Origin: Minisyncoccota bacterium | GTDB taxonomy: Bacteria; Patescibacteriota; Minisyncoccia; Phycocordibacterales; UBA9973 | Assembly: GCA_041662205.1 (NCBI GenBank) | Contig: JBAZSZ010000001.1 | Location: forward strand, 295,978 to 359,977 | DNA: 64,000 bases | Reading direction: 5' to 3' | Shown here: positions 6,609 through 56,132 of the stretch, piece by piece | Position numbering within the stretch: position 1 is the first letter of the stretch | Layout: each line of letters starts with the position of its first letter | The notes under the pieces: generated by a model | The model's input: the letters and a program-made list of their open reading frames with translations, nothing else | What the model was told of the DNA's origin: nothing | The model's database searches: none | Program-made: the position numbers and the translations under genes

Positions 6609-8285
6609 TTAATATACCTCTTGCTGATAACACTTCTCGCAGTAGACAATCTCCGGCCTTTCTGGAGCAAAATTAGTGATAATTTTTTTCTGACATTTAG
6701 CACAATTACGATCCCAGAATTTATATGGACCTCGACGAATTACCCGATCTTGATGCCTGCAATAAAAACATTTTCTTGAAATTGGAATATTTATTTTTCG
6801 GTAAAATAAAAGTTCTTGATCTATAACCTTATAATTTCTTTTACAAGAAATACATTTTAAAATTTCACTCGTTATAGAATCCTCCACATCTTTTATGTGG
6901 TCAGGAATATCTTCTGTTTGTAATGTTTCTTTACCTTCTGTCTTTTGAATATCAACTTCCCATCTATAACCTTGCGCGAGAGCTTCTTCTTTTGAAAGGG
7001 GGAAATTTTCTTGAGCCATAGTTTCATTGTAGGCAAAAGGAGCAAGCTCATAGGATATCATTAATCCATATAAATCTAGATCAGTTAATTCTTTTATTAT
7101 TTTTTCCCTTAATCTTTCATACTCTTCTTTAGAATATTGCTTATTTAAAATAAAATATTGTCCATTTTTCAATCCATCACAACCAATACAGTTTTTGCAA
7201 TTCCTATTATAAAATCCATATAAAACATTACTGGAATTCTCTACTGCATAAGAACCAATAATATTATTCCCATACCCAGAAGCTACTACTTCGAGCAACT
7301 GTTCAGAGTTTATCCCATGACCAATTGTACCGATAGAATCTTTTATATGCTTTGACGAGTGAGTATGATGACAGTCTTCCCCATTGTTTATCTCAAAAGA
7401 TTTTTGAACATTTTTACACGAAAAAAGATAATCTCCCGTAGAATTTACAGTTTTTATATTATTATTTTCTCGCATTGGAAAATTTAAAATAAATTTCTCA
7501 AATTCTTTTTTAAATTCCTCTAATTTCTTATAAGATCCTAAAATATCACTCACTTTTTTAGTGTACTCATCTGCCCCCATCGGCTTATTTAAGAAATAGT
7601 GAGATTTATTATTCAAATTAACACAACCAAAACAATTTAAAACATTTCTACAATTAAAGACAAAACAAGAATCTACTGAACTGTTTATATTTTGACCATA
7701 AAGAATCCCAGAAGAATGTTGAATATTTATAGATTCGTAGCATCTTTCTACTTTTATTCCAAAATACAAATCACTAGAATCCTTGACATCTATTGCTCCT
7801 CTAGAATAAAGCACTTCCTCGGCTGGTCCAGTGTTGAAAACAAGATAACAATTCTTGCATCCACCAGCCATATTGATATACTCGCTATTTATGTTTGGAC
7901 CTGGACCAATAGAAATATAGGTAGTAATTTTAGGAACTTTTAATAAGAGCTCTTTATAGTGTTCTAAAAAAGATCGATTCTCATCAAAATCCATAGCATA
8001 ATCTCTCGCTTCCCATTTTTCAGAATAAAAACATTTTTCACAATAAATAACATAAGGGGATTTTGGATTATATATCGAAATAACATTTTTTTCACAGAGA
8101 GCGCATTTTCGTCCTGAATATAAACTCATCTCATTTCTAAATAAAGCGCGCATTATAAAACGACAATCTGGGCATATCTTTGGATTTGGTACCTTCATCT
8201 TTTCATAAAATCCAAGCTCGTCAGAGGAAAATGAAAAATCTTGTTTGCATTTTTTACAGTTTTTTATTTCTTTTATATTTTCCAT
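6609..8285 (-). CDS. Cys-rich multi-zinc-ribbon protein, paralog A (unknown function)
   Basis: 558 aa, about 40 Cys; N-terminal CxxC..FYxKxxVPxPxxCPxCR..RNExxLY..C module repeated near C-terminus; internal CxxCxxCxGC..NLxNK..NKQYSKEEY repeats; tail PERPEIVYCEKCYQQEVY; no signal peptide. Confidence 0.8.
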   Translation of the reverse strand: MENIKEIKNCKKCKQDFSFSSDELGFYEKMKVPNPKICPDCRFIMRALFRNEMSLYSGRKCALCEKNVISIYNPKSPYVIYCEKCFYSEKWEARDYAMDFDENRSFLEHYKELLLKVPKITTYISIGPGPNINSEYINMAGGCKNCYLVFNTGPAEEVLYSRGAIDVKDSSDLYFGIKVERCYESINIQHSSGILYGQNINSSVDSCFVFNCRNVLNCFGCVNLNNKSHYFLNKPMGADEYTKKVSDILGSYKKLEEFKKEFEKFILNFPMRENNNIKTVNSTGDYLFSCKNVQKSFEINNGEDCHHTHSSKHIKDSIGTIGHGINSEQLLEVVASGYGNNIIGSYAVENSSNVLYGFYNRNCKNCIGCDGLKNGQYFILNKQYSKEEYERLREKIIKELTDLDLYGLMISYELAPFAYNETMAQENFPLSKEEALAQGYRWEVDIQKTEGKETLQTEDIPDHIKDVEDSITSEILKCISCKRNYKVIDQELLFYRKINIPISRKCFYCRHQDRVIRRGPYKFWDRNCAKCQKKIITNFAPERPEIVYCEKCYQQEVY

Positions 8286-8313: not shown

Positions 8314-10065
8314 CTAGTATACTTCTTGCTGGTAACACTTCTCACAATACACTATCTCTGGTCGGTCAGGTGCATACGAAGTTTCAAATTCAACTTCACA
8401 TTTTTCATTGCCGTGAAAATGGTTCTCTTTGTCACACATGCAAGATCTATGCCAAATTTTCATAGGATTACGCATTTTTAGTCTATTTTCGTGACGACAC
8501 AAAAAACACAATCTGGGTAAAGGTACTCCGAGTTTTCGATATAAATTTAATTCATCTATAGTTATTTTATATGCTCCTCTGCAACAATTACTGGATTTTT
8601 CTTTATTATCACATCCAATAATTTCCTTCGTGATGGAATCTGTTACATCATCCAAACTAGACGGAAGGTCTTTAGCTTCTATTGTTGTTTGATACTCATT
8701 TACTTTTTTTTCACGCCATCGATAACCCATTTTGATTGCCTGCTCTTTGGAAAGAGGAAAATAATCTTGCGCCTGAGTTTCATTATAACAAAAAGTAGAA
8801 AGTTCACTAGGAAAAAATTCTCCATATTTATAGACAATTCCCCTCTTGTCCACATAAGGCACTTCATTCATCTGTTGTTCAATTTTTGGAATTAATTTTT
8901 CATATTCTTCTTTGGAATATTGTTTATTTAGAATACAATATTTCTTGTTTCGCACACCAATACAACCAAATAAATTTGAGCTTCCATGACAATTAAAAGA
9001 ATATTCAATATCATTTGAGCCATAAATCACACTACCAAAAAGATTACGAGAACCCCCTATTCCCGTATCAAAAACTTCATAAAGCATTTCGCCTTCCCCT
9101 ACTCCAGGACCAGAATCATAAGCATCTTTAAGACTTTTTACTGCCCAGTGTGAAAATTTTGCATCCTCTATGTCTCCAGTTGCGTCAAAACAAATTTTGC
9201 AATTTTTAGTACCTTCTAAATTATCGCCCGTTGAATCCACAGTCTTTATTTTAACAGCAAACCGATGAAGTGATTTTAGGCATATTTCTCTAAACTTATT
9301 TTTAAGTTCTTGGATAGTTCTATAATCCTTAAAACTATATTCTGCTATTTTTTTGTGATATTCTTCTCTAGAAAATTGCTCATTCCACATACAATATGAT
9401 TTATTGCGTAAATTAGTACAACCAAAACAATCTGTACATCCTACGCAATCATAAAGAAAATATGAATCTACACAACTTTTGCAATTTAGAGAATATAATA
9501 AATGATAGCTATCCGAGCAAAGCACGTCTTCATAACAAAGTTCAGAACGATTAACAACGTATAAATCTGCAGAATCTTTTGTTCCTGTAATTCTGTTTGC
9601 ATATAAAGTTCTTTCTATTCTCCAAGAACCGGAACACATATAGCTATCCTTACTAGCTTCCGCAACATTACAATAATCACTGTTTGTATCTTTTATATTT
9701 GAAAGAGATTGCAGAGGAATATTGTCTCTCAAATTTTTCCATTGTTCAAAAAAAGGATTTAAAAAATCATATTCTTTACCATACGAAAGTGGATCCCAGC
9801 CATCACCCCACCAAGCATCAGAACAATATACTGTAAGTTTTTCTTCTGGAGGTAAAAAAGAAATAAGCATTTCATTGTGTCCTGGCGCATCGCATTTTCT
9901 TTTAAATAAAGACATCTCATTTCGCCAAGTTAGACGCCGAATAGTTCTACACTCCGGACAAAAAGTCGGTGGAAGAACTTTTATCTTTTCATAAAAGTTA
10001 AAATCTTCCGGCTCTATAATAAAATCTTGTTTGCAGTTCTGACAGATCTTAGTTTCTGAATTCAT
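8314..10065 (-). CDS. Cys-rich multi-zinc-ribbon protein, paralog B
   Basis: 583 aa; same architecture as A; closest to paralog C; start 1 nt after ATPase-2 stop. Confidence 0.8.
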   Translation of the reverse strand: MNSETKICQNCKQDFIIEPEDFNFYEKIKVLPPTFCPECRTIRRLTWRNEMSLFKRKCDAPGHNEMLISFLPPEEKLTVYCSDAWWGDGWDPLSYGKEYDFLNPFFEQWKNLRDNIPLQSLSNIKDTNSDYCNVAEASKDSYMCSGSWRIERTLYANRITGTKDSADLYVVNRSELCYEDVLCSDSYHLLYSLNCKSCVDSYFLYDCVGCTDCFGCTNLRNKSYCMWNEQFSREEYHKKIAEYSFKDYRTIQELKNKFREICLKSLHRFAVKIKTVDSTGDNLEGTKNCKICFDATGDIEDAKFSHWAVKSLKDAYDSGPGVGEGEMLYEVFDTGIGGSRNLFGSVIYGSNDIEYSFNCHGSSNLFGCIGVRNKKYCILNKQYSKEEYEKLIPKIEQQMNEVPYVDKRGIVYKYGEFFPSELSTFCYNETQAQDYFPLSKEQAIKMGYRWREKKVNEYQTTIEAKDLPSSLDDVTDSITKEIIGCDNKEKSSNCCRGAYKITIDELNLYRKLGVPLPRLCFLCRHENRLKMRNPMKIWHRSCMCDKENHFHGNEKCEVEFETSYAPDRPEIVYCEKCYQQEVY

Positions 10066-12028: not shown

Positions 12029-12061
12029 ATACTATACATTTTACAACAAAATTACCAAAAC

Positions 12062-12086
12062 AAAAAGCCCTATAAGGGGCTTTTTG
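12062..12086. terminator. Hairpin AGCCC-TATAAG-GGGCT flanked by A-run and T-run (bidirectional intrinsic terminator) between secreted-protein gene and ATPase-2
   Basis: seen in sequence. Confidence 0.5.
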
Positions 12087-12107
12087 TTTTGGTAAAAGAA
12101 AATTATA

Positions 12108-13322: not shown

Positions 13323-13409
13323 TTTTTTATTTTAATTAATAATAGATAACAAAAATTATACCATATTTTAATAAAAAAATACTAATTATGGTTTTATTTC
13401 CATCATATT

Positions 13410-13431
13410 AAAAGCCCCTTAAGGGGCTTTT
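13410..13431 (-). terminator. Intrinsic terminator after dnaK (AAAAGCCCCTTAAGGGGCTTTT)
   Basis: perfect 7-bp GC stem with flanking A/T runs, ends 9 nt after dnaK stop codon. Confidence 0.7.
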
Positions 13432-13439
13432 AATATGAT

Positions 13440-16013: not shown

Positions 16014-17756
16014 CTAGTAAATCTCCTGTTGATAGCATTTTTCACAATAAACTATCTCTGGCCTCTCAGGCGCATAACTCGTTTCAAATTCTATTTCACA
16101 TTTACTTTCGTGAGTATGATTTTCTTTTTCACACATACAAGTTCTTTTCCATAATTTCCATGCTGGTAATTGATAAAACCTTTCATAATATCTACAATTG
16201 GGACACAAAATCGGGAGCGGTATTTTATTTTTCTTATAAAAATCAAGTTCAAAATTTGCTAAACGAAAAGCGATATTGCATTGATGAATACAACTTCCCT
16301 TGTGTGCACATTCTAATACTTCTCCTAAAATTTTATCATCTACTTCATCTATTGTATCGGGAATATTTTCTACAGGTATGGTAATCTGGAAATTCTTTAC
16401 ATCTTGCTCTAACCATCGATAACCGTTTTTTTCTACTTCTGTTTTAGTCATTGGATTAATTTCTTGGGCAAAAGTTTCGTTGTAAGCAAAAGGACAGACT
16501 TCTATAGGAAAAAATTCTCCATATTTATAAACTCTACCCGCCTTGTCCACAAAAGGTATATTTTCCATTTGTTTTATAATTTCTAAGCGAAGTTTATCAA
16601 ATTCATCTTTTGAACAAATTTTATTGAAAATTACATTTTCTTTATTTCTTATTCCAATACAACCAAATAAATTTGAGCTATTAATACAAGAATCAGTATA
16701 CTCCACATTGCTGACAGAACTAAAAGCGGAATGAGAAAATTTCACATTATAATCATTTAGAGATCCAGTAACATATTCATACATCAATTCTGACTTCATT
16801 GCCTGAGAAGAATCCATGGAATCCTTAAAAGACTCCAATACTCTATAACAGTATTTCAAATTTTCCGCATTGTAAACATCAAAACAATTTTGACAATTTT
16901 TTACATTTGAAAGATTATTTCCAGTAGCGTTTACTGAACGTACAATGTTAGTAAAACGATAAATAGATTTTTCTTTTATTTCTTTAAATTCCTTAAGAAA
17001 AACTTCCAGAGAATCCCTGCTTGATAAATTTAATCTTTCTTTTTCTTTTAAATATTCTTCTTTTGAATACTGCTTATTGCGAATATAAAATTCTTTATTA
17101 CGTAAATTGTAAGAAAGTAAGCAATTGCTACAGTTTACACAATCAACTAAAAAATAAGAATCTAAACAATTTTTTGAAAGTAATAAATACTGACAATTGT
17201 AATTTTTCTCACTTTGAATATTCTCATATAAATTTTGCCCTTCGTTAATATTTAAGCAATCAATAATGTCCGTAGACTTATCTACATTCTTTGAATAAAA
17301 AACATTTTCTGAACCCTTAACGACCGAAAATGATAAATAAACATTCTTAGACTCACCCGCATAATTTGTATAATCAGAGTTAATTACATTTCTATGCCAC
17401 AAAGCTAATCGAGGCACGACATTCATTAATTTATTAAATTGCTCAAAAAATGGTCTAGAAAAATCATAATCTCTACTAAAAGAAGTGGCTTCCCAACCAT
17501 CTCCAAACCAACATTCTCGACAATATACAGGGAAAGGCACGGATTCATGGTACATTGAAATAATGTTTTTCTTACACAAATCACATTTACGTTTATATAA
17601 AGTTCTTTCATTACGCCAAGCCATTCTCCTTTGCAACCTACACCAAGGACAAAAAGTAGGTGCGGGAACTTGTATCTTTTTGTAATAATTAAAATCTTCT
17701 GGCTCTATTTTAAAGTCTTTTTTGCAATTCTGGCAATTTTTAGTTTCACTTTTCAT
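16014..17756 (-). CDS. Cys-rich multi-zinc-ribbon protein, paralog C
   Basis: 580 aa; N-terminus CQNCKKDFKIEPEDFNYYKKIQVPAPTFCPWCR..WRNERTLYKRKC; tail FETSYAPERPEIVYCEKCYQQEIY; start 1 nt after paralog D stop. Confidence 0.8.
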   Translation of the reverse strand: MKSETKNCQNCKKDFKIEPEDFNYYKKIQVPAPTFCPWCRLQRRMAWRNERTLYKRKCDLCKKNIISMYHESVPFPVYCRECWFGDGWEATSFSRDYDFSRPFFEQFNKLMNVVPRLALWHRNVINSDYTNYAGESKNVYLSFSVVKGSENVFYSKNVDKSTDIIDCLNINEGQNLYENIQSEKNYNCQYLLLSKNCLDSYFLVDCVNCSNCLLSYNLRNKEFYIRNKQYSKEEYLKEKERLNLSSRDSLEVFLKEFKEIKEKSIYRFTNIVRSVNATGNNLSNVKNCQNCFDVYNAENLKYCYRVLESFKDSMDSSQAMKSELMYEYVTGSLNDYNVKFSHSAFSSVSNVEYTDSCINSSNLFGCIGIRNKENVIFNKICSKDEFDKLRLEIIKQMENIPFVDKAGRVYKYGEFFPIEVCPFAYNETFAQEINPMTKTEVEKNGYRWLEQDVKNFQITIPVENIPDTIDEVDDKILGEVLECAHKGSCIHQCNIAFRLANFELDFYKKNKIPLPILCPNCRYYERFYQLPAWKLWKRTCMCEKENHTHESKCEIEFETSYAPERPEIVYCEKCYQQEIY

Positions 17757-17757
17757 A

Positions 17758-19434
17758 TCAAGCTATATTTTGTTTATAACATTCTTCGCAAGCAATTTTC
17801 TGGTATCCCCATTCCGGCAAATAATATGCATCGACATCCTTTTTACAATAAAAACATTTATATTGATGTGCTTGCAAGATAGTCAAATATTTCAAACTAT
17901 TTTTTATTCGCACATCAAAATGATAACGTGGAAGTGGGATATTATTTTCTTTGTAAAAAGAAAGTTCATTTTGGGCAATATTGAAACGCCAGCCCGTTTC
18001 AGGGCAAATCAGTGCCTGAGTGATGATAGTATTCGGAACGTCTTTGATATCGTCAGGCAACTCCGCTGTAGGCATGCCGTCTACATGACTCTCTGTGACA
18101 TCCTCCCAATAACCGCCAAATTTTAAAATATCTTCTTTTTTAGTTTCTGGAAAATACAGAAAAGCAGTAGAAAAATTAAAAGGTCCCAAGCTCATGGAAT
18201 AAGGTAAAAATTTCCCATATTCTCCACTCTTTTTCATATCAGAAATTATCTTATTTTTTAAAGTTTCATATTCTTCTTTACTATACTGTTTGTTTAAAAT
18301 ACAATATTTCTTTTTCCCCAAACCCACACAACCAAAACAATATTCACATTCAAGACATAGATCTAAATATTCAGAATATCTTGAGGACGACCAACTGGAA
18401 TATTTGAGAGCATAACCACTTGGTTGGCAGGAACTACAATTGCCTGATACTTCTAAATACTGACAACCATTTATGTCGACGCAAGACTCTAATCCTGTGC
18501 CTCTGATACAGTTAGAGCAATCCTTAGAATCAGAGATTGTGAAACAATTTTGGCAATTTTTACAATCAATTAAGTAATCGCCAATGGAATTGAAAACTTT
18601 TAAATTGAAGTTCGGTCTATGCGCCACCTCATTTTTAATTATTTCTTTAAAATGTTTTTTAAGTTTTTGAATAGAATCATAAGAACCAAGATTAAATAAT
18701 TGGATTTTTTTATCATATTCCTCCTTAGAATACTGCACATTTTCTATACAATAGGATTTATTGCGAAGATTCCAACACATAAAACAATTTTGACAGTTTC
18801 GGCAATCATATAAAAAACTTGATTGTATGCAATCGCGGGAATGTTTCGAATAAAAAAGTTTGTAGGAATGATGACATTCAGAAGAATCAAAACATTTTTC
18901 ACTATTATAACAAACAACCACATCAATAGAATTTTTTACCCCTATATTCCTATATGAATAAAATAAATTTTCGCAATCTACCATTGAACGAGAAAGATAA
19001 CTATCCTTACAATTCCAAACATCATCACACCAATCACAACCTGTACTTTTAATACCATCTTGATGCGGACGAGGAACTTTCTCTTGAAGATTTTGTAATT
19101 GCTCAAAAAATAATTTTTTTTCGTCATAGTCTGCCCCATAATCCATCGCGTCCCACTTGTCGCTATACCACTCATTTAAAGTGTAAATCGGATATCTAGT
19201 CTTCTCTGGTAAAACGGTAATTAAACTTTCTCCAGAGAGATCTGATTTACCCCTGCGAAATTTTCCAAACATCCAAAAAGATAAATGTAATTTTACTCGA
19301 CAAAAAAAACAAAGTGTCGGTAATTCAATATCAACTTTTTTATATAAAGATAATTCTTCTTCTGTAATTAAGAAGTCTCGTTTGCAGTGTTCACAAACTC
19401 TAGTTTGCAGGTCCTTTGTATTCATATACATCAA
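17758..19434 (-). CDS. Cys-rich multi-zinc-ribbon protein, paralog D (most divergent)
   Basis: 558 aa; CEHCKRDF..LSLYKKVDIELPTLCFFCR; CRNCQNCFMCWNLRNKSYC..YSKEEY repeats; start overlaps grpE 3' end by about 25-35 nt. Confidence 0.75.
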   Translation of the reverse strand: MMYMNTKDLQTRVCEHCKRDFLITEEELSLYKKVDIELPTLCFFCRVKLHLSFWMFGKFRRGKSDLSGESLITVLPEKTRYPIYTLNEWYSDKWDAMDYGADYDEKKLFFEQLQNLQEKVPRPHQDGIKSTGCDWCDDVWNCKDSYLSRSMVDCENLFYSYRNIGVKNSIDVVVCYNSEKCFDSSECHHSYKLFYSKHSRDCIQSSFLYDCRNCQNCFMCWNLRNKSYCIENVQYSKEEYDKKIQLFNLGSYDSIQKLKKHFKEIIKNEVAHRPNFNLKVFNSIGDYLIDCKNCQNCFTISDSKDCSNCIRGTGLESCVDINGCQYLEVSGNCSSCQPSGYALKYSSWSSSRYSEYLDLCLECEYCFGCVGLGKKKYCILNKQYSKEEYETLKNKIISDMKKSGEYGKFLPYSMSLGPFNFSTAFLYFPETKKEDILKFGGYWEDVTESHVDGMPTAELPDDIKDVPNTIITQALICPETGWRFNIAQNELSFYKENNIPLPRYHFDVRIKNSLKYLTILQAHQYKCFYCKKDVDAYYLPEWGYQKIACEECYKQNIA

Positions 19435-26794: not shown

Positions 26795-28531
26795 CTAAAA
26801 AAGTACAGCTTTAATACGTCGTATTCCGTGAGCCACTGCTTCTTCCTTTTGAATTTTAAATTTACCTAATTCACCAGTATTAGAAACATGCGGGCCACCG
26901 CAAAATTCTCTACTAAAATATCCGGTTTTTTCATCTCCTACGGAATAAACTTTAACCACTTCACCATATTTTTCGTTAAAAGAATGCGCGGCAATTTTCT
27001 CGGCATCAGCTTTAGGCATTTCTACAAAACTAACTGACAATTTCTCAGCAATTTTATCATTAACAATTTCTTCTACTTTTTTCTTTTCTTCTTCAGTCAT
27101 TTTTTGTATATGAGTAAAATCAAAACGCAATCGCTCCCCAGTAATATTACTCCCCTTTTGCATGACGTGATTGCCGAGAACCTGCTTGAGGGCAGCATTT
27201 AATAGATGTGTGGCAGTATGTAATTTTTTAGCTTCTTCTCCACTATCCGCCAATCCTCCCTTAAACATTCCAGCTGAAGCAGTTTGGGAAAGTTTCTGAT
27301 GCTCTGTCATTTTTTTATCAAAATCATCACGATCAATTACAATACCTTTTTCTTTTGCTAATTCTTCAGTAAGTTCTACTGGAAAACCATAAGTAGTGGA
27401 TAAAATAAAAGGATCAGTACCCTTTTCAAACTCTTTTAAACCCTGCAAAATTGTTTGATTAAATTTATTTGATTCATCTTTGATAACATTTTTTATATAC
27501 TCAGATTTTTCCTTAATATTTTTATATATATTTCCGTATTTTATTACAATCACATCTACTAAAGAAGAAACCTCAGCATCCTTCATTTTGTGTTCAGAAA
27601 AACAGAAAATTGCTCGACGTATTAATCTGCGAAGTACATAACCTTGATCTTTATTGGATGGAATCACACCATCAGAAATTAAAAACACACTAGCTCGAAT
27701 ATGGTCTGCGATAATTCTTTTTTTTCCTATATCTTGACCCACAGATATCAACACCGCACTAATATCAGAAAACAAATCAGTATCATATGCGGTTTTTTTC
27801 CCTTGCATCACAGCAGTAATTCTTTCTAGCCCAGCACCAGTATCTACATTTTTCTGTTTTAATTTCCCAATAACTTTTCCATCTTTCTTTTCAAATTCCA
27901 TAAAAACGTCATTCCAAATCTCTATAACATCTTCTTTCTTTACTGCACCTAAAAATTCTTCTTTAGATAAATCTCCAACGACACCAGACATATCGTAAAA
28001 CATTTCACTACAGGGCCCACATGGACCATTGTCTCCTGGGCTCCACCAATTATCATCCGCTGGTAAAGCATAAATACGATTTTCCGAAATACCCATACTC
28101 ATCCAAATATCTTTTGATTCTTGGTCAAATGGAGCATTTTCGTCACCTTCAAATATTGTAAAATATAAACGATTTGTATCTAATCCTAAGCCTTCTTCTT
28201 TAGAAGTTAGAAATTCATAGCTCCATTTTATAGCATCTTCTTTAAAATAATCCCCTAGAGACCAATTGCCCAACATTTCAAAAAAAGAAAAATGGCGATT
28301 GTCTCCAATATCATCCAAGTCTCCTGTACGCACACATTTTTGGACATTCACTAGTCTATTTCCCATTGGATGCACTTCTCCTAAAAGATAGGGTACGAGA
28401 GGTTGCATTCCGGCCGTATTAAACAAAACAGAAGGATCATTTTCTGGCACTAGTGAAGCCGAAGGAATAATTTTATGTCCTCGATTCTCAAAAAATTTTA
28501 AAAATTTTAATCTAATTTCATCTGATTGCAT
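26795..28531 (-). CDS. alaS: Alanine--tRNA ligase, shortened form lacking C-Ala domain
   Basis: N-terminal FLKFFENRGHKIIPSASLVP..., editing-domain HxxxH and CGGPHV motifs; 578 aa. Confidence 0.9.
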   Translation of the reverse strand: MQSDEIRLKFLKFFENRGHKIIPSASLVPENDPSVLFNTAGMQPLVPYLLGEVHPMGNRLVNVQKCVRTGDLDDIGDNRHFSFFEMLGNWSLGDYFKEDAIKWSYEFLTSKEEGLGLDTNRLYFTIFEGDENAPFDQESKDIWMSMGISENRIYALPADDNWWSPGDNGPCGPCSEMFYDMSGVVGDLSKEEFLGAVKKEDVIEIWNDVFMEFEKKDGKVIGKLKQKNVDTGAGLERITAVMQGKKTAYDTDLFSDISAVLISVGQDIGKKRIIADHIRASVFLISDGVIPSNKDQGYVLRRLIRRAIFCFSEHKMKDAEVSSLVDVIVIKYGNIYKNIKEKSEYIKNVIKDESNKFNQTILQGLKEFEKGTDPFILSTTYGFPVELTEELAKEKGIVIDRDDFDKKMTEHQKLSQTASAGMFKGGLADSGEEAKKLHTATHLLNAALKQVLGNHVMQKGSNITGERLRFDFTHIQKMTEEEKKKVEEIVNDKIAEKLSVSFVEMPKADAEKIAAHSFNEKYGEVVKVYSVGDEKTGYFSREFCGGPHVSNTGELGKFKIQKEEAVAHGIRRIKAVLF

Positions 28532-28537
28532 ATAACT

Positions 28538-29023
28538 TTATTTCTTTGGTTGATCTATCCCTTCAGAAATTTTCCTAATAGGTTTTTCAATTATATTTAT
28601 TAAAATTAATATTGAAAGTACTAGGATAGTAACAAGAATTGCTAAATTATAAAATCCAAAACCAGCAGCCATACCGATACCTGCAGTCACCCAAAGTCCA
28701 CCAGCCGTAGTGAGACCCCGAAGCTGGGAACCATAAAGCATTATCGAACCAGCCCCCAGAAAACCAATACCCACAACAATTTGAGATGGAATCATCGTCG
28801 GACTAAGACCAGGAAAATTAATATATTTTTGAATCATCGCTTCTGAAATTAATACAAAAACTGCTGAACCCAAAGAAACCAGAGCGTGCGTTTTCATCCC
28901 AGCATCTTTGTGGACGAAAAATCTTTCTGCTCCTACTAAAAGACCTAGACCTACTGCTGTCACCAATTTTAAAATAACTTCACTATTTTGTATAAAAAAT
29001 TGTTCCATTGAATGATTATACAA
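28538..29023 (-). CDS. MgtC/SapB family membrane protein
   Basis: GLGLLVGAERFFVHKDAGMKTHALV and RGLTTAGGLW signature. Confidence 0.75.
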   Translation of the reverse strand: MYNHSMEQFFIQNSEVILKLVTAVGLGLLVGAERFFVHKDAGMKTHALVSLGSAVFVLISEAMIQKYINFPGLSPTMIPSQIVVGIGFLGAGSIMLYGSQLRGLTTAGGLWVTAGIGMAAGFGFYNLAILVTILVLSILILINIIEKPIRKISEGIDQPKK

Positions 29024-30224
29024 CTACCCCGCCACCCAAGCAAATATCACCATCATAAATAACACAAGATTGACCGGAGGCAACCATGATCGGCTTTTTA
29101 AAAATTACTTTTGCCCTTCGACTACGCTCAGGACCTTCGGCGGCTTCAATTATGCATGATAAAAACTCTCCATGATAACGAATCTGTGCAGTGTAGTTTT
29201 TATTTTCTTTTGGAACTTCAGAAATCCAATTTACATTACTCAAATCTACAGAATCCCAAGCAACGCTTTCTGCGGTATTCGCAACTAAAGCTCGGTCAGC
29301 CATGTTCAAGATAGAGTGCGAGCCGTGAGAAAGCAACTGCTTTGGATTTTGTGACACATATAAAATATTCTTTTTAATGTCTTTACCAAATACATAATAA
29401 GCTCCATCTGTTGGTATTTTTTTTGTAATGGTAAAACCATGCCTTTCTCCAAGAGTATAAAAAACTACTCCATAATGATGACCAATTTCTTCCCCTATTT
29501 CATTTAACACCTTGCCTTTTTTTTCTTTTATATAATGTTTCAAAAATTCTTTTAAATCAACTGCTCCTAAAAAACAAATACCTTGACTGTCTTTTTTTTG
29601 TGCAACCAAAAGCTTGAATTTTTTTGCTAATTTTCTCACTTCAGTCTTTTTTAGATGACCTATAGGGAATAAAATTTTCTTCAATTGTTCTTGTCTCAGC
29701 GTCCACAAAAAATAACTTTGATCTTTAGAAGAATCTTCCCCTTTCGCAAGATAAAAAGATATGCCTTTTTCGGTACTCGCAACCAAAGCTCGGTCAGCCA
29801 TGTTCAAGATAGAGTGCGAGCCGTGAAAAGGTATTATCTTTTTATCTTGCGCATAATGCCCAGTAGCCACAAAGTCAGCTCCCATAGAAATAGCTTTTTT
29901 TAGAAAAGCTCCAAATTTCACTTCTTTATTACACATCACATCTGGGTTCGGAGTTCGTCCGAGTTTATATTCACTAATCATATAATCCGCCACTTCTTTC
30001 TTATAAACATCTTCAAAATCAAAAGTAAGAAATGGTATATCTAGAGCTGCTGCCACCCGCATCGCATCCATGCGTTCTTCTTCTTCGTTGCAAACTAAAA
30101 AATCTGGGTGCCAAGTTTTAATAAAAACTCCCACGACTTCATAACCTTGTTTTTTCAACAATGCTGCACTAACTGCCGAGTCAACACCACCAGACAAACC
30201 AACAAAGACTACTTTCTTTTTCAT
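29016..30224 (-). CDS. mnmA: tRNA-specific 2-thiouridylase MnmA, carrying two in-frame copies of a 48-bp repeat
   Basis: VVFVGLSGGVDSAVSA PP-loop, DSQGICFLG catalytic Cys region, C-terminal CLGGGVV. Confidence 0.9.
   Translation of the reverse strand: MKKKVVFVGLSGGVDSAVSAALLKKQGYEVVGVFIKTWHPDFLVCNEEEERMDAMRVAAALDIPFLTFDFEDVYKKEVADYMISEYKLGRTPNPDVMCNKEVKFGAFLKKAISMGADFVATGHYAQDKKIIPFHGSHSILNMADRALVASTEKGISFYLAKGEDSSKDQSYFLWTLRQEQLKKILFPIGHLKKTEVRKLAKKFKLLVAQKKDSQGICFLGAVDLKEFLKHYIKEKKGKVLNEIGEEIGHHYGVVFYTLGERHGFTITKKIPTDGAYYVFGKDIKKNILYVSQNPKQLLSHGSHSILNMADRALVANTAESVAWDSVDLSNVNWISEVPKENKNYTAQIRYHGEFLSCIIEAAEGPERSRRAKVIFKKPIMVASGQSCVIYDGDICLGGGVVV
29277..29325. repeat. Direct repeat copy 1 (about 48 bp) inside mnmA encoding HGSHSILNMADRALVA
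   Basis: near-identical to 29775-29825. Confidence 0.8.
29775..29825. repeat. Direct repeat copy 2 inside mnmA
   Basis: near-identical to 29277-29325 (AAAGCTCGGTCAGCCATGTTCAAGATAGAGTGCGAGCCGTGA). Confidence 0.8.
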
Positions 30225-36074: not shown

Positions 36075-36160
36075 GCGTCGGTGGTAGAGCGGTCAAATAC
36101 AAGGGACTGTAAATCCCTCGCCTTCGGGCTACGAAGGTTCGAATCCTTCCCGGCGCACCA
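36075..36160 (+). tRNA. tRNA-Tyr (anticodon GTA), class II long variable arm, CCA encoded
   Basis: acceptor GCGTCGG/CCGGCGC, anticodon stem AGGGA/TCCCT, loop CTGTAAA, T-loop TTCGAATC. Confidence 0.85.
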
Positions 36161-42095: not shown

Positions 42096-43610
42096 ATGCC
42101 AGAAAACAAAAACAATAAAATAACAGAGCGTCCGCCAGTCGTAGTGGTCATGGGTCATATTGACCATGGCAAATCAACCTTGCTTGACTACATAAGAAAA
42201 ACGAATATCACCGAAAAAGAAACTGGGGGAATAACTCAAAAAATTTCCGCTTATGAAGTTATTCATCAAAATAAAAAAATAACTTTCTTAGATACTCCCG
42301 GGCACGAAGCTTTTTCAAAAATGCGCGAGCGTGGTGCCAAGATAGCCGACATTGCTATTTTAGTCGTCTCAGCTGAGGATGGAGTAAAACCTCAAACAAT
42401 CGAAGCATGGAAAACTATCGTAGAATCAAATACCCCATGCATCGTCGCGATAAATAAAATAGACAAGCCAGCAGCCGACACAGAAAAAACAAAAAAAGAA
42501 TTAGCAGAAAATGAAATCTATTTAGAAAATTATGGAGGTAAAATTCCTTTTGTAGAAATTTCCGCGAAAGTTGGCACTGGAGTAGATGACTTGCTCTCCC
42601 TCATTTTAATTCTTGCAGAAATGGAAAATTTTACAGGAGATAGCTCCCTGCCTGCTTCTGGTTTTGTAATTGAAGTAAATTTGGATTCTAAGCGTGGAAT
42701 ACTAGCGACCTTGATTATCAAAAATGGAACCATGGAAAATGGAATGACCGTAACAGTTAGAGATGCTATATGTTCTGCACGCATCATTGAAAACTTTTTG
42801 GGAAAAACAATCAATGAAGCCACTTTCTCTTCCCCTGTTCGAGTAGTCGGTTTTGATAAGATGCCTAAAGTTGGTGCGCAATTCAAAACTTTTCAAAAAA
42901 AATCAGATGCCATAAAATATATAGAGGAATTACCCCCCCACCCTACGAACACTGCCTTTTCTCAAGGAGGAGAAATTGGAAACAAAAAAATAATACCGAT
43001 AATATTAAAAGCTGATGTCTCCGGCTCGATCGAAGCAATAGAAAAAGAAATTTCTAAAATAAATTCTAAACTTGGCGCCACTGCAAGTAAAAATGCTGAA
43101 TTTAAAATTGTCGGAAAAGGTATCGGACCTATTTCAGAATCTGACATAAAAGGAGTCTCCTCAGGTATAGATGCTATCGTCATAGGATTCAATGTAAAAG
43201 CTGATAAAAGCGCCATCAATACCGCTCAAAATAGAGGCGTCACAATTTCTTTCTTTGATATTATTTATAAAATGACAGAATGGCTAGAAATACAAATGGA
43301 AGAAAGAAGACCTAAAGTTGAAACCCTAGAAACAACCGGTCGCGCAAAAATCATTCGAGCTTTTAGTAAAACTAAAGAACGCCAAATATTAGGTGGCAAA
43401 GTCATAGAAGGACAAATCAATCTAAGCAGCACTATTAGAATAATGCGTCGAGAATTTGAAATTGGCCGAGCTAAAATAGTCAATCTAGAAAAAAATAAAA
43501 TAAAAACGAGTGAAATCCCTGAAGGCTCTGAATTTGGAATGATGATTGAGTCAAAAATAGAAGTGGTCGCTGGAGATATATTAGAATCTTTTTCAATAAC
43601 CCAAAAATGA
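42096..43610 (+). CDS. infB: Translation initiation factor IF-2 (short form, G-domain onward)
   Basis: [33 protein letters not shown]. Confidence 0.92.
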
Positions 43611-43933: not shown

Positions 43934-43936
43934 AAG

Positions 43937-44008
43937 AGGCCTGGGGCGGAATCGAACCGCCGTATATTCCTTTTGCAGAGGAATGCCTTACCACTTGGCT
44001 ACCAGGCC
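43937..44008 (-). tRNA. tRNA-Cys (GCA)
   Basis: acceptor GGCCTGG/CCAGGCC, anticodon loop CTGCAAA, T-loop TTCGATT. Confidence 0.85.
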
Positions 44009-44046
44009 GAAATTTATTTACTAAATTTAAATAACTTAAAAACTTG

Positions 44047-44128
44047 TGCCGGGAGGGAGACTCGAACTCCCAAGGGTTGCCCCACTAGTTCCTAAGACTA
44101 GCGCGTATACCAATTCCGCCATCCCGGC
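44047..44128 (-). tRNA. tRNA-Leu (TAG), class II
   Basis: GCCGGGATGGCGGAATTGGTA..., anticodon stem CTAGT/ACTAG loop CTTAGGA, long variable arm. Confidence 0.8.
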
Positions 44129-44131
44129 ATG

Positions 44132-44204
44132 TGCGCCCTGAAGGGATCGAACCTTCGACCTTATCCTTAAGAGGGATCTGCTCTACCAGCTGAGCTAAGG
44201 GCGC
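44132..44204 (-). tRNA. tRNA-Lys (CTT)
   Basis: GCGCCCTTAGCTCAGCTGGTAGAGC..., anticodon loop CTCTTAA, T-loop TTCGATC. Confidence 0.75.
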
Positions 44205-44230
44205 AAAATTTTATTTTAAAAAACTCCTCT

Positions 44231-44313
44231 GTGCCCGAGGTGGGAATCGAACCCACATCCCTTGCGAGACACGATTTTAAGTCGTGCGCGTATACCGGTT
44301 CCGCCACTCGGGC
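44231..44313 (-). tRNA. tRNA-Leu (TAA), class II
   Basis: GCCCGAGTGGCGGAACCGGTA..., anticodon stem CACGA/TCGTG loop CTTAAAA. Confidence 0.8.
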
Positions 44314-48976: not shown

Positions 48977-49022
48977 TCCCTAAACCTTGCTTAGGGGAAT
49001 TCCCCTAAGCAAGGTTTAGGGA
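48977..49022. repeat. 46-bp perfect palindrome TCCCTAAACCTTGCTTAGGGGA-AT-TCCCCTAAGCAAGGTTTAGGGA centred on GAATTC, 4 nt upstream of the first pilin-like gene's ATG
   Basis: seen directly; overlaps the AGGGAA SD-like element. Confidence 0.85.
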
Positions 49023-55483: not shown

Positions 55484-55506
55484 AAAATTAACTTAAAAAT
55501 AAAAAA

Positions 55507-55528
55507 ATCTCTCAATTAATTGAGAGAT
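55507..55528. terminator. Bidirectional terminator, perfect palindrome ATCTCTCAATT-AATTGAGAGAT with flanking A/T runs
   Basis: seen directly between convergent S1 and glucosaminidase-like genes. Confidence 0.7.
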
Positions 55529-55538
55529 TTTTTTATTT

Positions 55539-56132
55539 TTAAGTAGTTAAATTAGGAGTCACTATTAAATCCGCGTCTCCAATATCATCCATAATAGCTA
55601 TTACTTGCTCGGCATATTTCAACACGATAGAAGGTGGATTGTAAGCATGGAGAATTCCCTTAGTATTTTTATCATCATAATGTTTAGCGGTTCTTGGATT
55701 ATTCCCCCCCAAATTTCTAGCCACAGTTTCAATAGCACTATCAACTGATTTAAATCCGATCTTACAAGAACCCCAACCAAAAGGGTTATTTTTTACTTTT
55801 TTACAAGCAAACTTACCACCAGTAGACTCTCGTACTGCAATAGACGGCAACAGACGCCAATCGAGGTCGTTCTTTTCCGCTTCCTCTACCATTTTCATAC
55901 CAGTTCCTTTAAGGGGCATATCATGTTCAGCAAAATATGCATCGATAGCATTAGCCTTTAATTTTAAGGCCTGCTCAATTTGTTGATCTTTTGCTGGAGC
56001 GGTAATTGCAACTTGTGGTTGATTTACCACGTTAAAACCATTATTCGGAATAGTTCCGAAAGGTGTCATCATTGTCATTATTGGTAAAATAACAAACGAC
56101 TCCACAAACCTTATTGTTTTTGTTTTTTTCAT
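55539..56132 (-). CDS. Glucosaminidase/FlgJ-like peptidoglycan hydrolase domain protein (secreted)
   Basis: signal/TM N-terminus; LLPSIAVRESTGGKF...NNPFGWG resembles PF01832 glucosaminidase core. Confidence 0.5.
   Translation of the reverse strand: MKKTKTIRFVESFVILPIMTMMTPFGTIPNNGFNVVNQPQVAITAPAKDQQIEQALKLKANAIDAYFAEHDMPLKGTGMKMVEEAEKNDLDWRLLPSIAVRESTGGKFACKKVKNNPFGWGSCKIGFKSVDSAIETVARNLGGNNPRTAKHYDDKNTKGILHAYNPPSIVLKYAEQVIAIMDDIGDADLIVTPNLTT

Follow-up and report, generated by a model that had tools for sequence, protein, structure and literature searches.

A small palindromic dispersed repeat very probably inserted twice in frame in mnmA of a Paceibacteria genome

Introduction

Repetitive extragenic palindromic sequences (REPs) are 20–40 nt long, lie outside genes, carry a conserved 5′ GTAG-type head and occur as doublets. 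Rickettsia palindromic elements (RPEs) are palindromic repeats of ~100–150 bp, many of which lie in frame in unrelated housekeeping genes, according to a review (PMC10969869, citing Ogata et al. 2000). Hairpin stems can also be created, repaired and maintained by template switching during replication, as has been documented (PMC8794818; Monttinen and Loytynoja 2022). Here we analyse a 64,000-nt stretch of DNA, hereafter the window, from a Minisyncoccota bacterium (GenBank assembly GCA_041662205.1, contig JBAZSZ010000001.1, forward-strand positions 295,978–359,977), in which mnmA, the gene for tRNA 2-thiouridine(34) synthase, contains two near-identical repeats. These very probably belong to a family of small, non-coding palindromes, ~100–107 nt long and dispersed through the genomes of a clade of Paceibacteria, within the candidate phyla radiation (CPR).

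As far as PMC10969869 describes the Rickettsia RPEs, the element resembles them in being a small palindromic dispersed repeat with many copies in frame in intact housekeeping genes and others in non-coding DNA, and the peptide that it adds likewise falls, in our structural model, in seemingly tolerant parts of the protein. It differs in its host, which belongs to the CPR/Paceibacteria and not to the Alphaproteobacteria; in its length, which at ~100–107 nt is shorter than the ~100–150 bp stated in that source; in the placement of half of its copies, which lie precisely at gene ends and show a bias in orientation; in outer stems that are copy-specific yet complementary, with the two copies in one gene homogenised; and in loops (the protein segments that receive the inserts) that are shared with several other hairpin families. 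By analogy, then, the element appears to work like an RPE, which we regard as its closest analogue, but we do not class it as a member of the Rickettsia RPE families, homology across phyla being unlikely. With REP/REPIN sequences, which are mobilised by REP-associated tyrosine transposases (RAYTs), it shares an imperfect hairpin with conserved bulges and compensatory change from arm to arm, and its orientation bias would be compatible with a single-strand DNA mechanism, as in REP/REPIN and IS200/IS605-type systems; unlike them, it is a single ~100-nt hairpin with a 32–33-nt loop, is often intragenic and lacks a GTAG-type head. A literature search for in-frame palindromic elements in CPR/Patescibacteria returned nothing relevant in the library used, which is no proof that none exists. 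Judged by these analogies, small dispersed palindromes that genes tolerate in frame are already a known kind of element, to which the CPR repeat appears to add a new case.

Results

Two copies of one repeat lie in frame within mnmA

The MnmA encoded in the window is 100% identical to a ‘Candidatus Paceibacterota’ MnmA entry at NCBI. The gene and the two copies of the element in it, at positions that we call site A and site B, are as follows.

29016–30224, minus strand: mnmA, tRNA 2-thiouridine(34) synthase, 402 aa (Pfam PF03054/PF20259/PF20258)
29745–29851, minus strand: site A, full imperfect hairpin, between ATGHYA and KDQSYF, residues ~125–160
29771–29826, minus strand: site A, conserved 56-nt core with loop, composed of TCACGGCTCGCAC, a 33-nt loop and GCGAGTACCG; encodes (F)HGSHSILNMADRALVAST
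29248–29352, minus strand: site B, full imperfect hairpin, between NILYVSQ and NW, residues ~291–326
29273–29328, minus strand: site B, conserved 56-nt core with loop, 2 differences from the site A core; encodes (S)HGSHSILNMADRALVANT

An exact 42-mer, AAAGCTCGGTCAGCCATGTTCAAGATAGAGTGCGAGCCGTGA, occurs twice, at 29287–29328 and 29785–29826, with no third match anywhere in the 64 kb, even when three mismatches are allowed (0/100 dinucleotide shuffles). Both copies lie in frame within the single open reading frame (ORF) of mnmA, spaced 498 bp apart, and read (F/S)HGSHSILNMADRALVA on the coding strand. The 48 nt coding for HGSHSILNMADRALVA (29280–29327 and 29778–29825, minus strand) are identical at 47 of 48 positions, the single difference being synonymous; the 56-nt cores agree at 54 of 56 positions, with both differences A/G; and a repeat finder traced a wider similarity over ~94 nt at 81% identity (29258–29351 versus 29756–29849). 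The GC content of the repeats is 0.46–0.54, compared with ~0.20–0.36 across most of mnmA and 0.344 window-wide. A sequence-only reading of this DNA had described a 48-bp repeat, GC-richer than the surrounding gene, inserted twice in frame in mnmA, and our results bear out the duplication, the frame and the base composition. The coordinates it gave identify the right sites, although they are 2–5 nt off, and its figure of ~96% identity reflects a high similarity that it underestimates. The repeat it saw is present, but the unit to which it belongs is a hairpin about twice as long.

Each repeat is the centre of an imperfect hairpin

Each mnmA copy forms the centre of a ~105-nt imperfect hairpin, a point that had been missed in the earlier description. 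At site A, the arms of 37 nt (29745–29781 / 29815–29851) constitute the longest inverted repeat in the window, and the outer stem, CGCAAGATAAAAAGATA with TATCTTTTTATCTTGCG, is a perfect 17 bp, while the outer stem at site B is made of ACAAAATCCAAAGCAG and TTGCTTGGGATTCTGT. These outer stems are unlike in sequence, each being complementary to its own partner. For the mRNA strand, the computed folding energy is −43.3 kcal/mol at site A (z −4.95) and −39.1 kcal/mol at site B (z −2.9), the opposite strand of both copies folds equally well or better, and all folds computed range from −39 to −47 kcal/mol with z from −2.9 to −6.3. A profile search of the window (nhmmer) recovered site A at 29747–29849 (E 1e-20) and site B at 29249–29352 (E 6e-23).

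The unit of ~100–107 nt consists of an A-run, a variable outer stem, T5/A6, a conserved core round the loop and a T-run. Specifically, the outer stem spans ~12–20 bp with a loose consensus, CACAAAGCAGCTGC / GCACTGCTTTGTG, in which one base is bulged, and inward from it follow T5 with A6, a 2×1 internal loop, CGGC/GCCG, a conserved 1×3 internal loop, CGCA/TGCG and the loop. The core consensus, CACGGCTCGCAC ... GCG(T/A)AT(G/A)CCG, encloses a loop of 32–33 nt that comes in four main types, the window type being ‘HSILNMADRALVA’. Complementary arms of 25–35 nt on each side were considered as terminal inverted repeats; the whole unit is one hairpin, so that the terminal inverted repeat is its stem. 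A candidate peptide across the element is LSHGSHSILNMADR.

Both segments are insertions in an apparently intact host gene

The PP-loop motif SGGVDS, Cys98 and Cys217 are invariant in ortholog alignments and, because the PP-loop and both catalytic cysteines are retained, mnmA is apparently an intact, functional host gene. A predicted structure of the window MnmA compares with the MnmA structures 2hma, 2der and 2deu at template modelling (TM) scores of 0.71–0.80. Against all Protein Data Bank (PDB) sequences (phmmer), the protein aligns in three blocks: residues 127–147 at site A fall between the consecutive residues 133|134 of the B. subtilis and S. pneumoniae MnmA chains (9hlv, 2hma), and residues 294–320 at site B stand opposite 5 residues of the B. 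subtilis/S. pneumoniae chains. Among 28 orthologs with 67–81% identity, an HGSHS-type peptide is found at both sites or at one, or is replaced by an unrelated peptide, or there is nothing. Measured across 80 GTDB Paceibacteria loci, site A is 42 aa long in the window versus a baseline of 15–21 aa and site B 39 aa versus 17–19 aa; the element lengthens the two mnmA loops by ~21–27 residues each. The earlier claim that both sites are insertions is thus upheld by the ortholog alignment and by solved MnmA chains, and as to whether relatives carry the same segments as conserved native sequence, other orthologs lack the inserts or have unrelated sequence in their place.

The structure prediction, an AlphaFold2 model built on 64 orthologs, has a mean predicted local distance difference test (pLDDT) score of 73.8. 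Values below 50 occur at residues 132–152 and 296–322, which are the two inserts, between confident flanks, and in two more segments, 211–234 (around the catalytic Cys217) and 253–262. Given their low confidence in the model, the inserted segments are probably flexible loops.

The element is dispersed in genes and at gene ends

We scanned JGI/ENA metagenome contigs for the pattern TCACGGCTCGCAC, 28–38 nt, GCGWRTRCCG, which yielded 96 stretches. Together with the window copies and those at L001 (the locus of a 71% identical ortholog) these amount to 97 distinct copies, 3 of which are false positives in GC-rich DNA, leaving 94 distinct true copies. Forty-nine copies lie inside identified host genes, at seven sites, and 42 are intergenic.

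mnmA site A: 12 copies
mnmA site B: 12 copies
tgt: 7 copies
Asp/Glu-racemase (murI-like) gene: 6 copies
PF10672 S-adenosylmethionine (SAM) methyltransferase gene (rRNA-methyltransferase-like): 5 copies
leuS site 2: 4 copies
leuS site 1: 3 copies
Intergenic: 42 copies

Intergenic copies are preceded by an A-run and followed by a T-run. In 36 of the 40 that have a left-hand ORF, a co-oriented ORF ends within ~10 nt of the hairpin foot, and in tandem gene pairs the orientation of the element is strongly biased (++ 18, −− 2). Further copies of the repeat, for which the sequence-only reading had recommended a search, are therefore many in the genes and intergenic DNA of relatives, the window itself having only two. 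At L001 the core is present in four places within 21 kb, as follows.

Within mnmA, at site A
In the spacer between the mltG-like gene and the exonuclease gene
In the spacer between the exonuclease gene and mnmA
Directly after the stop codon of another gene

Two of these copies (L001:9249–9350 and 9896–9994) flank a 175-aa exonuclease-like gene upstream of mnmA, and the orthologous spacers in the window carry no element. A search of Rfam 15 with L001 and its four copies (E ≤ 1) matched a tRNA only and no element family. The same DNA pattern had no match in viral contigs, hence there is no sign of phage carriage in that set.

The same unit, including the outer stem AAGATTGCGAAGCAGCAAC / GTTCTGCTTCGCAATCTT, is found at the non-homologous leuS-1, leuS-2 and methyltransferase sites, which makes the outer stem part of the unit, and the outer stem of one mnmA copy matches that of an intergenic copy, L176. 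We had also considered the outer stem as an inverted duplication of the target, and discarded this as a general rule because of the stem common to leuS-1, leuS-2 and the methyltransferase gene and because in L122 the site A stem is found at both mnmA sites. Site B insertion points in L155 and L156 are five codons apart, site A junctions are unlike between L121 and L145, and in L093 and L160 the site B copies are reversed, with the ORF still open and the peptide different. Independent insertion events are indicated by these differing junctions and reversed copies. Of 50 coding copies, 49 have the HGSH frame (CAC GGC TCG CAC) open; the remaining two forward frames are almost always closed and one of the reverse frames stays open in 80% of these copies, a pattern that fits random insertion followed by loss of those copies that break the host gene. 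Since the frame is always open and the downstream phase kept, neither splicing nor bypass nor an intein is needed.

The two mnmA loops receive several hairpin families

Among 74 distinct GTDB site A sequences whose folds we surveyed, 41 are short, with a mean fold z of −0.2, and 33 are expanded, with a mean z of −3.1 (z < −2 in 21 of the 33). The expanded sequences represent many unrelated peptide and DNA families, and both mnmA loops hold several unrelated hairpin families. One of these, a second in-frame family with the peptide FELPEGPTPVLRGRAQGRKIGRG, has copies in mnmA and in leuS of different genomes whose DNA agrees at 92–99%. Each of its five matches falls within a long ORF.

L174:7175–7258, L155:7327–7406 and L011:4804–4864: FELPEGPTPVLRGRAQGRKIGRG family in mnmA
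L150:202–278 and L082:261–335: FELPEGPTPVLRGRAQGRKIGRG family in leuS

A G+C-rich double-hairpin insert, CCCCCTCCTCGTGGAGGAGGGGG ... CCCCTCCTCATCAAGGAGGGG, occupies mnmA site B at L001:10888–10988 and is also seen in L003, L005, L008 and L012; it encodes PLLVEEGVGGGN..TPPHQGGE, and which of the two sites it occupies, A or B, varies with the genome. In L152, with which we group L101:2599–2662, mnmA site B is a composite: the 5′ half of an HGSHS element leads into another kind of hairpin element, AAGGTCGG...CCGACCTT, which encodes FQRS.LKSSKR.DLKNLE and has AAAATTTT on both sides. This composite could be a nested insertion or a replacement, possibly with a target duplication.

A third position in the gene, site C, corresponds to a second GC-rich patch that had been reported alongside the repeat.

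29105–29140, minus strand: site C, GC-rich patch encoding EAAEGPERSRRAK, a 4–5-aa indel in the C-terminal barrel

The indel is present in only some orthologs and adds residues relative to the PDB chains, and a 20-mer from it, GTCCTGAGCGTAGTCGAAGG, recurs outside mnmA at L004(−)11203. The placement in the C-terminal barrel was correct, but the patch is a separate short recurring motif and not a copy of the element.

Stems remain paired while cores are homogenised

Outer arms from the same copy pair at −18.3 kcal/mol versus −6.6 kcal/mol for arms from different copies, and identity between copies is 0.47 in the outer 5′ arm versus 0.79 in the core. We aligned 12 orthologous site B copies, comprising 32 pairs, without gaps: 95.3% of cells are standard pairs, 17 of the 32 pairs have changed on both sides, and there are 42 double-change cells versus 5 with a change on one side. 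None of 500 shuffles equalled these pairing values, and sliding the partner by 1–3 columns left 40–52% of cells paired. An A·C mismatch on the sense strand corresponds to G·U on the opposite strand, and the coding copies contain 17 sense-strand G·U pairs versus 37 A·C mismatches. This absence of a sense-strand G·U excess points to a Watson–Crick process acting on DNA and not to selection on the mRNA fold, and from the pattern of substitutions we infer that the stems are kept paired at the DNA level.

The cores behave differently from the outer stems, which follow the site. Between the two mnmA copies the core differs at 0 positions in L108, L122 and L160 and at 2 in the window, versus 1–8 between genomes, and genome-specific core variants are common to both mnmA copies, including those of L160, which are mutually inverted. 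We attribute the near-identity of the window copies to concerted evolution of old residents, by gene conversion or re-copying, and not to two fresh insertions; the inserts are old and common to a clade of orthologs.

Other features of the window

A GC-rich patch at 42924–42974 lies in a 506-aa IF2-like ORF, and its peptide resembles the TPPHQGGE insert family; this genome may hold a further in-frame relic there. GC-rich patches as a window-wide marker were dropped, because too many conserved coding patches share the property for it to discriminate. A number of the window's GC-rich patches are due to tRNA genes, namely a cluster at 43936–44313 (Cys-GCA, Leu-TAG, Lys-CTT, Leu-TAA) and a separate tRNA-Tyr at 36075–36160. 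Perfect intergenic palindromes of 38–54 nt, with 0–6 nt between the arms, are located at 48977–49022, 55491–55544, 13402–13439 and 12052–12095. Four paralogous minus-strand ORFs of ~560–580 aa (6609–8285, 8314–10065, 16014–17756 and 17758–19434) have repeat segments of 57–128 nt in common (D1, D2, D5). The ORF adjoining mnmA, 26795–28531, encodes 578 aa and is, as we presume by eye from its sequence, alanyl-tRNA-synthetase-like; a typical bacterial alanyl-tRNA synthetase is much longer than 578 aa.

Discussion

The suggestion that the mnmA repeats are RPE-like in-frame palindromic elements is supported by the palindrome itself, the insertion status of both segments, the dispersed copies and the low pLDDT. 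For an element of this kind, we envisage that it inserted into the mnmA loops in an ancestor of the clade, with at least two separate events at site B, and would have persisted because a disordered peptide is tolerated in these loops. The two mnmA copies would exchange sequence by gene conversion, and the stems would be kept paired by a process such as arm-to-arm template switching or hairpin-dependent recombination. Candidate movers are a transposase acting in trans or, at A/T-rich microhomology, template switching during replication. At gene ends, hairpin and T-run together would probably act as a terminator or 3′ stabiliser or take the place of one, to judge from their position and composition.

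Several observations weigh against a mobile element. The 64-kb window holds just two copies by the nhmmer profile, both in mnmA, and the ‘HSILNMADRALVA’ loop type is nearly confined to mnmA, with one intergenic copy, L175; because of these two facts, the element may have stopped moving in the window genome. No transposase or autonomous parent element turned up, although whole genomes were not searched for a transposase, and half-element matches, which bear on an autonomous parent, are found at locus ends only. There is also no consistent direct target-site duplication flanking the HGSHS family. It follows that the word ‘mobile’ refers solely to how the copies are distributed. The 5′ foot of the site B copies coincides with native Ser-Gln-Asn codons, which makes the exact insertion boundaries uncertain, and the census is biased toward conserved cores because the scan demanded an exact core. 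Translation of the inserts, finally, is deduced from their intact frames.

An alternative is that there is no transposable unit and that, without dedicated mobility machinery, hairpins arise and spread locally by template switching and gene conversion, with rare microhomology copying between A/T-rich sites giving the dispersed copies. The stems have the perfect Watson–Crick pairing, simultaneous changes in both arms and extension of pairing into the flanks described for template-switch hairpins (PMC8794818), where the process is documented to make and maintain hairpins; almost purely Watson–Crick stems with 42 double-change cells against 5 one-sided, the lack of a sense-strand G·U excess, core homogenisation within a genome even between oppositely oriented copies, and the failure to see a target-site duplication or transposase (with whole genomes left out of the transposase search) all suit it, and the element feet share CAAAAT / A-run microhomology with the target sites. 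Template switching is, however, a mutational process and not an element family, and alone it leaves unexplained more than 90 copies that share one asymmetric, highly conserved core and are spread over many genomes, at gene ends and at 7 or more intragenic sites; nor does it account for the orientation bias of the intergenic copies, and the conserved 1×3 internal loop and bulge resemble recognition features. We consider it unlikely as the whole explanation. A role at the RNA level, as terminator or 3′-end stabiliser at gene ends and as translation-dependent attenuator, RNase III site or pause site in tRNA and translation genes, seems to us about equally improbable. The intergenic copies begin at stop codons, are co-oriented with the preceding gene (tandem ++ 18 versus −− 2) and run into T-runs, stems change in a compensatory manner even inside coding DNA, 4 of the 5 host families act on tRNA or rRNA, and terminator-like copies at gene ends recall the SPRITE and Correia elements, which offer precedents (PMC10969869). 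Known ~100-nt hairpin repeats at gene ends have the same A/T-run flanks and terminator look and include some intragenic members with open frames; unlike those, the element has no definable signature of terminal inverted repeats with target-site duplication and no known parent insertion sequence (IS), and a far larger part of its copies, about half, reside in frame in essential genes. Set against an RNA function are the lack of G·U tolerance on the transcribed strand, the T-run of the window's site A copy, which is itself paired so that no free U-tract follows the stem, and the lack of any Rfam family match. A consensus terminator scan gave 0 sites, a result that neither supports nor excludes a terminator because the scan allows loops of 3–8 nt only. 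The unrelated hairpin families in the same loops also fit tolerance better than a specific regulatory design.

Far less probable is that the segments are a native functional module of MnmA, lineage-specific and duplicated within the protein. The peptide does occur at both sites in many orthologs of 70–81% identity, but the same DNA also lies between genes and within the genes of four other protein families. Other orthologs and solved structures lack it or have unrelated sequence there, its pLDDT is low, and reversed copies give a different peptide at the same site. We give still less credence to an assembly artefact, through a collapsed or chimeric repeat, or to a diversity-generating retroelement (DGR) with its template and variable repeats (TR/VR), a mini-intron, an intein or a translational bypass element, as near-identical direct repeats 498 bp apart with two differences, both A/G, might suggest. 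The same two-site layout recurs with genome-specific variants in independent assemblies from several projects (L108, L120, L122, L160), and both window copies have unique in-frame flanks. More than 90 copies dispersed in many genes are unlike a TR/VR pair, and variation is not confined to adenines but includes all kinds of substitution in loop and arms. The always open frame and preserved downstream phase speak against an intron or bypass, and 16–35 aa is far below intein size; these candidates were set aside on the distribution of copies, open frames, size and recurrence in independent assemblies.

Nevertheless, we can speculate that the hairpins are ORF-compatible, terminator-like cassettes, with stems under active upkeep in coding DNA, that act as translation-coupled switches in mnmA, tgt, leuS and the rRNA methyltransferase gene, a distinctly improbable idea. 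If it were true, a lagging ribosome would allow the ~100-nt hairpin to form and cause termination, a pause or cleavage, giving CPR bacteria a mobile, portable attenuator, and the fact that several hairpin families re-use the loops would mean that a structured site is selected for there, beyond tolerance.

Taking the repeats to be copies of a dispersed palindromic element, as we favour, much of the length variation of housekeeping proteins in Paceibacteria (CPR) appears to be due to small hairpin repeats inserted in frame, which, in a lineage that is huge and uncultured, bears on annotation, on phylogenies built from alignments and on the prediction of structures. The elements may also serve as strain markers. 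They provide an unusually clean case in which a stem within a coding region is kept paired by double substitutions, with signs of upkeep at the DNA level, and, besides the Rickettsia RPEs, would be a second independent natural system for selfish DNA turning into protein sequence.

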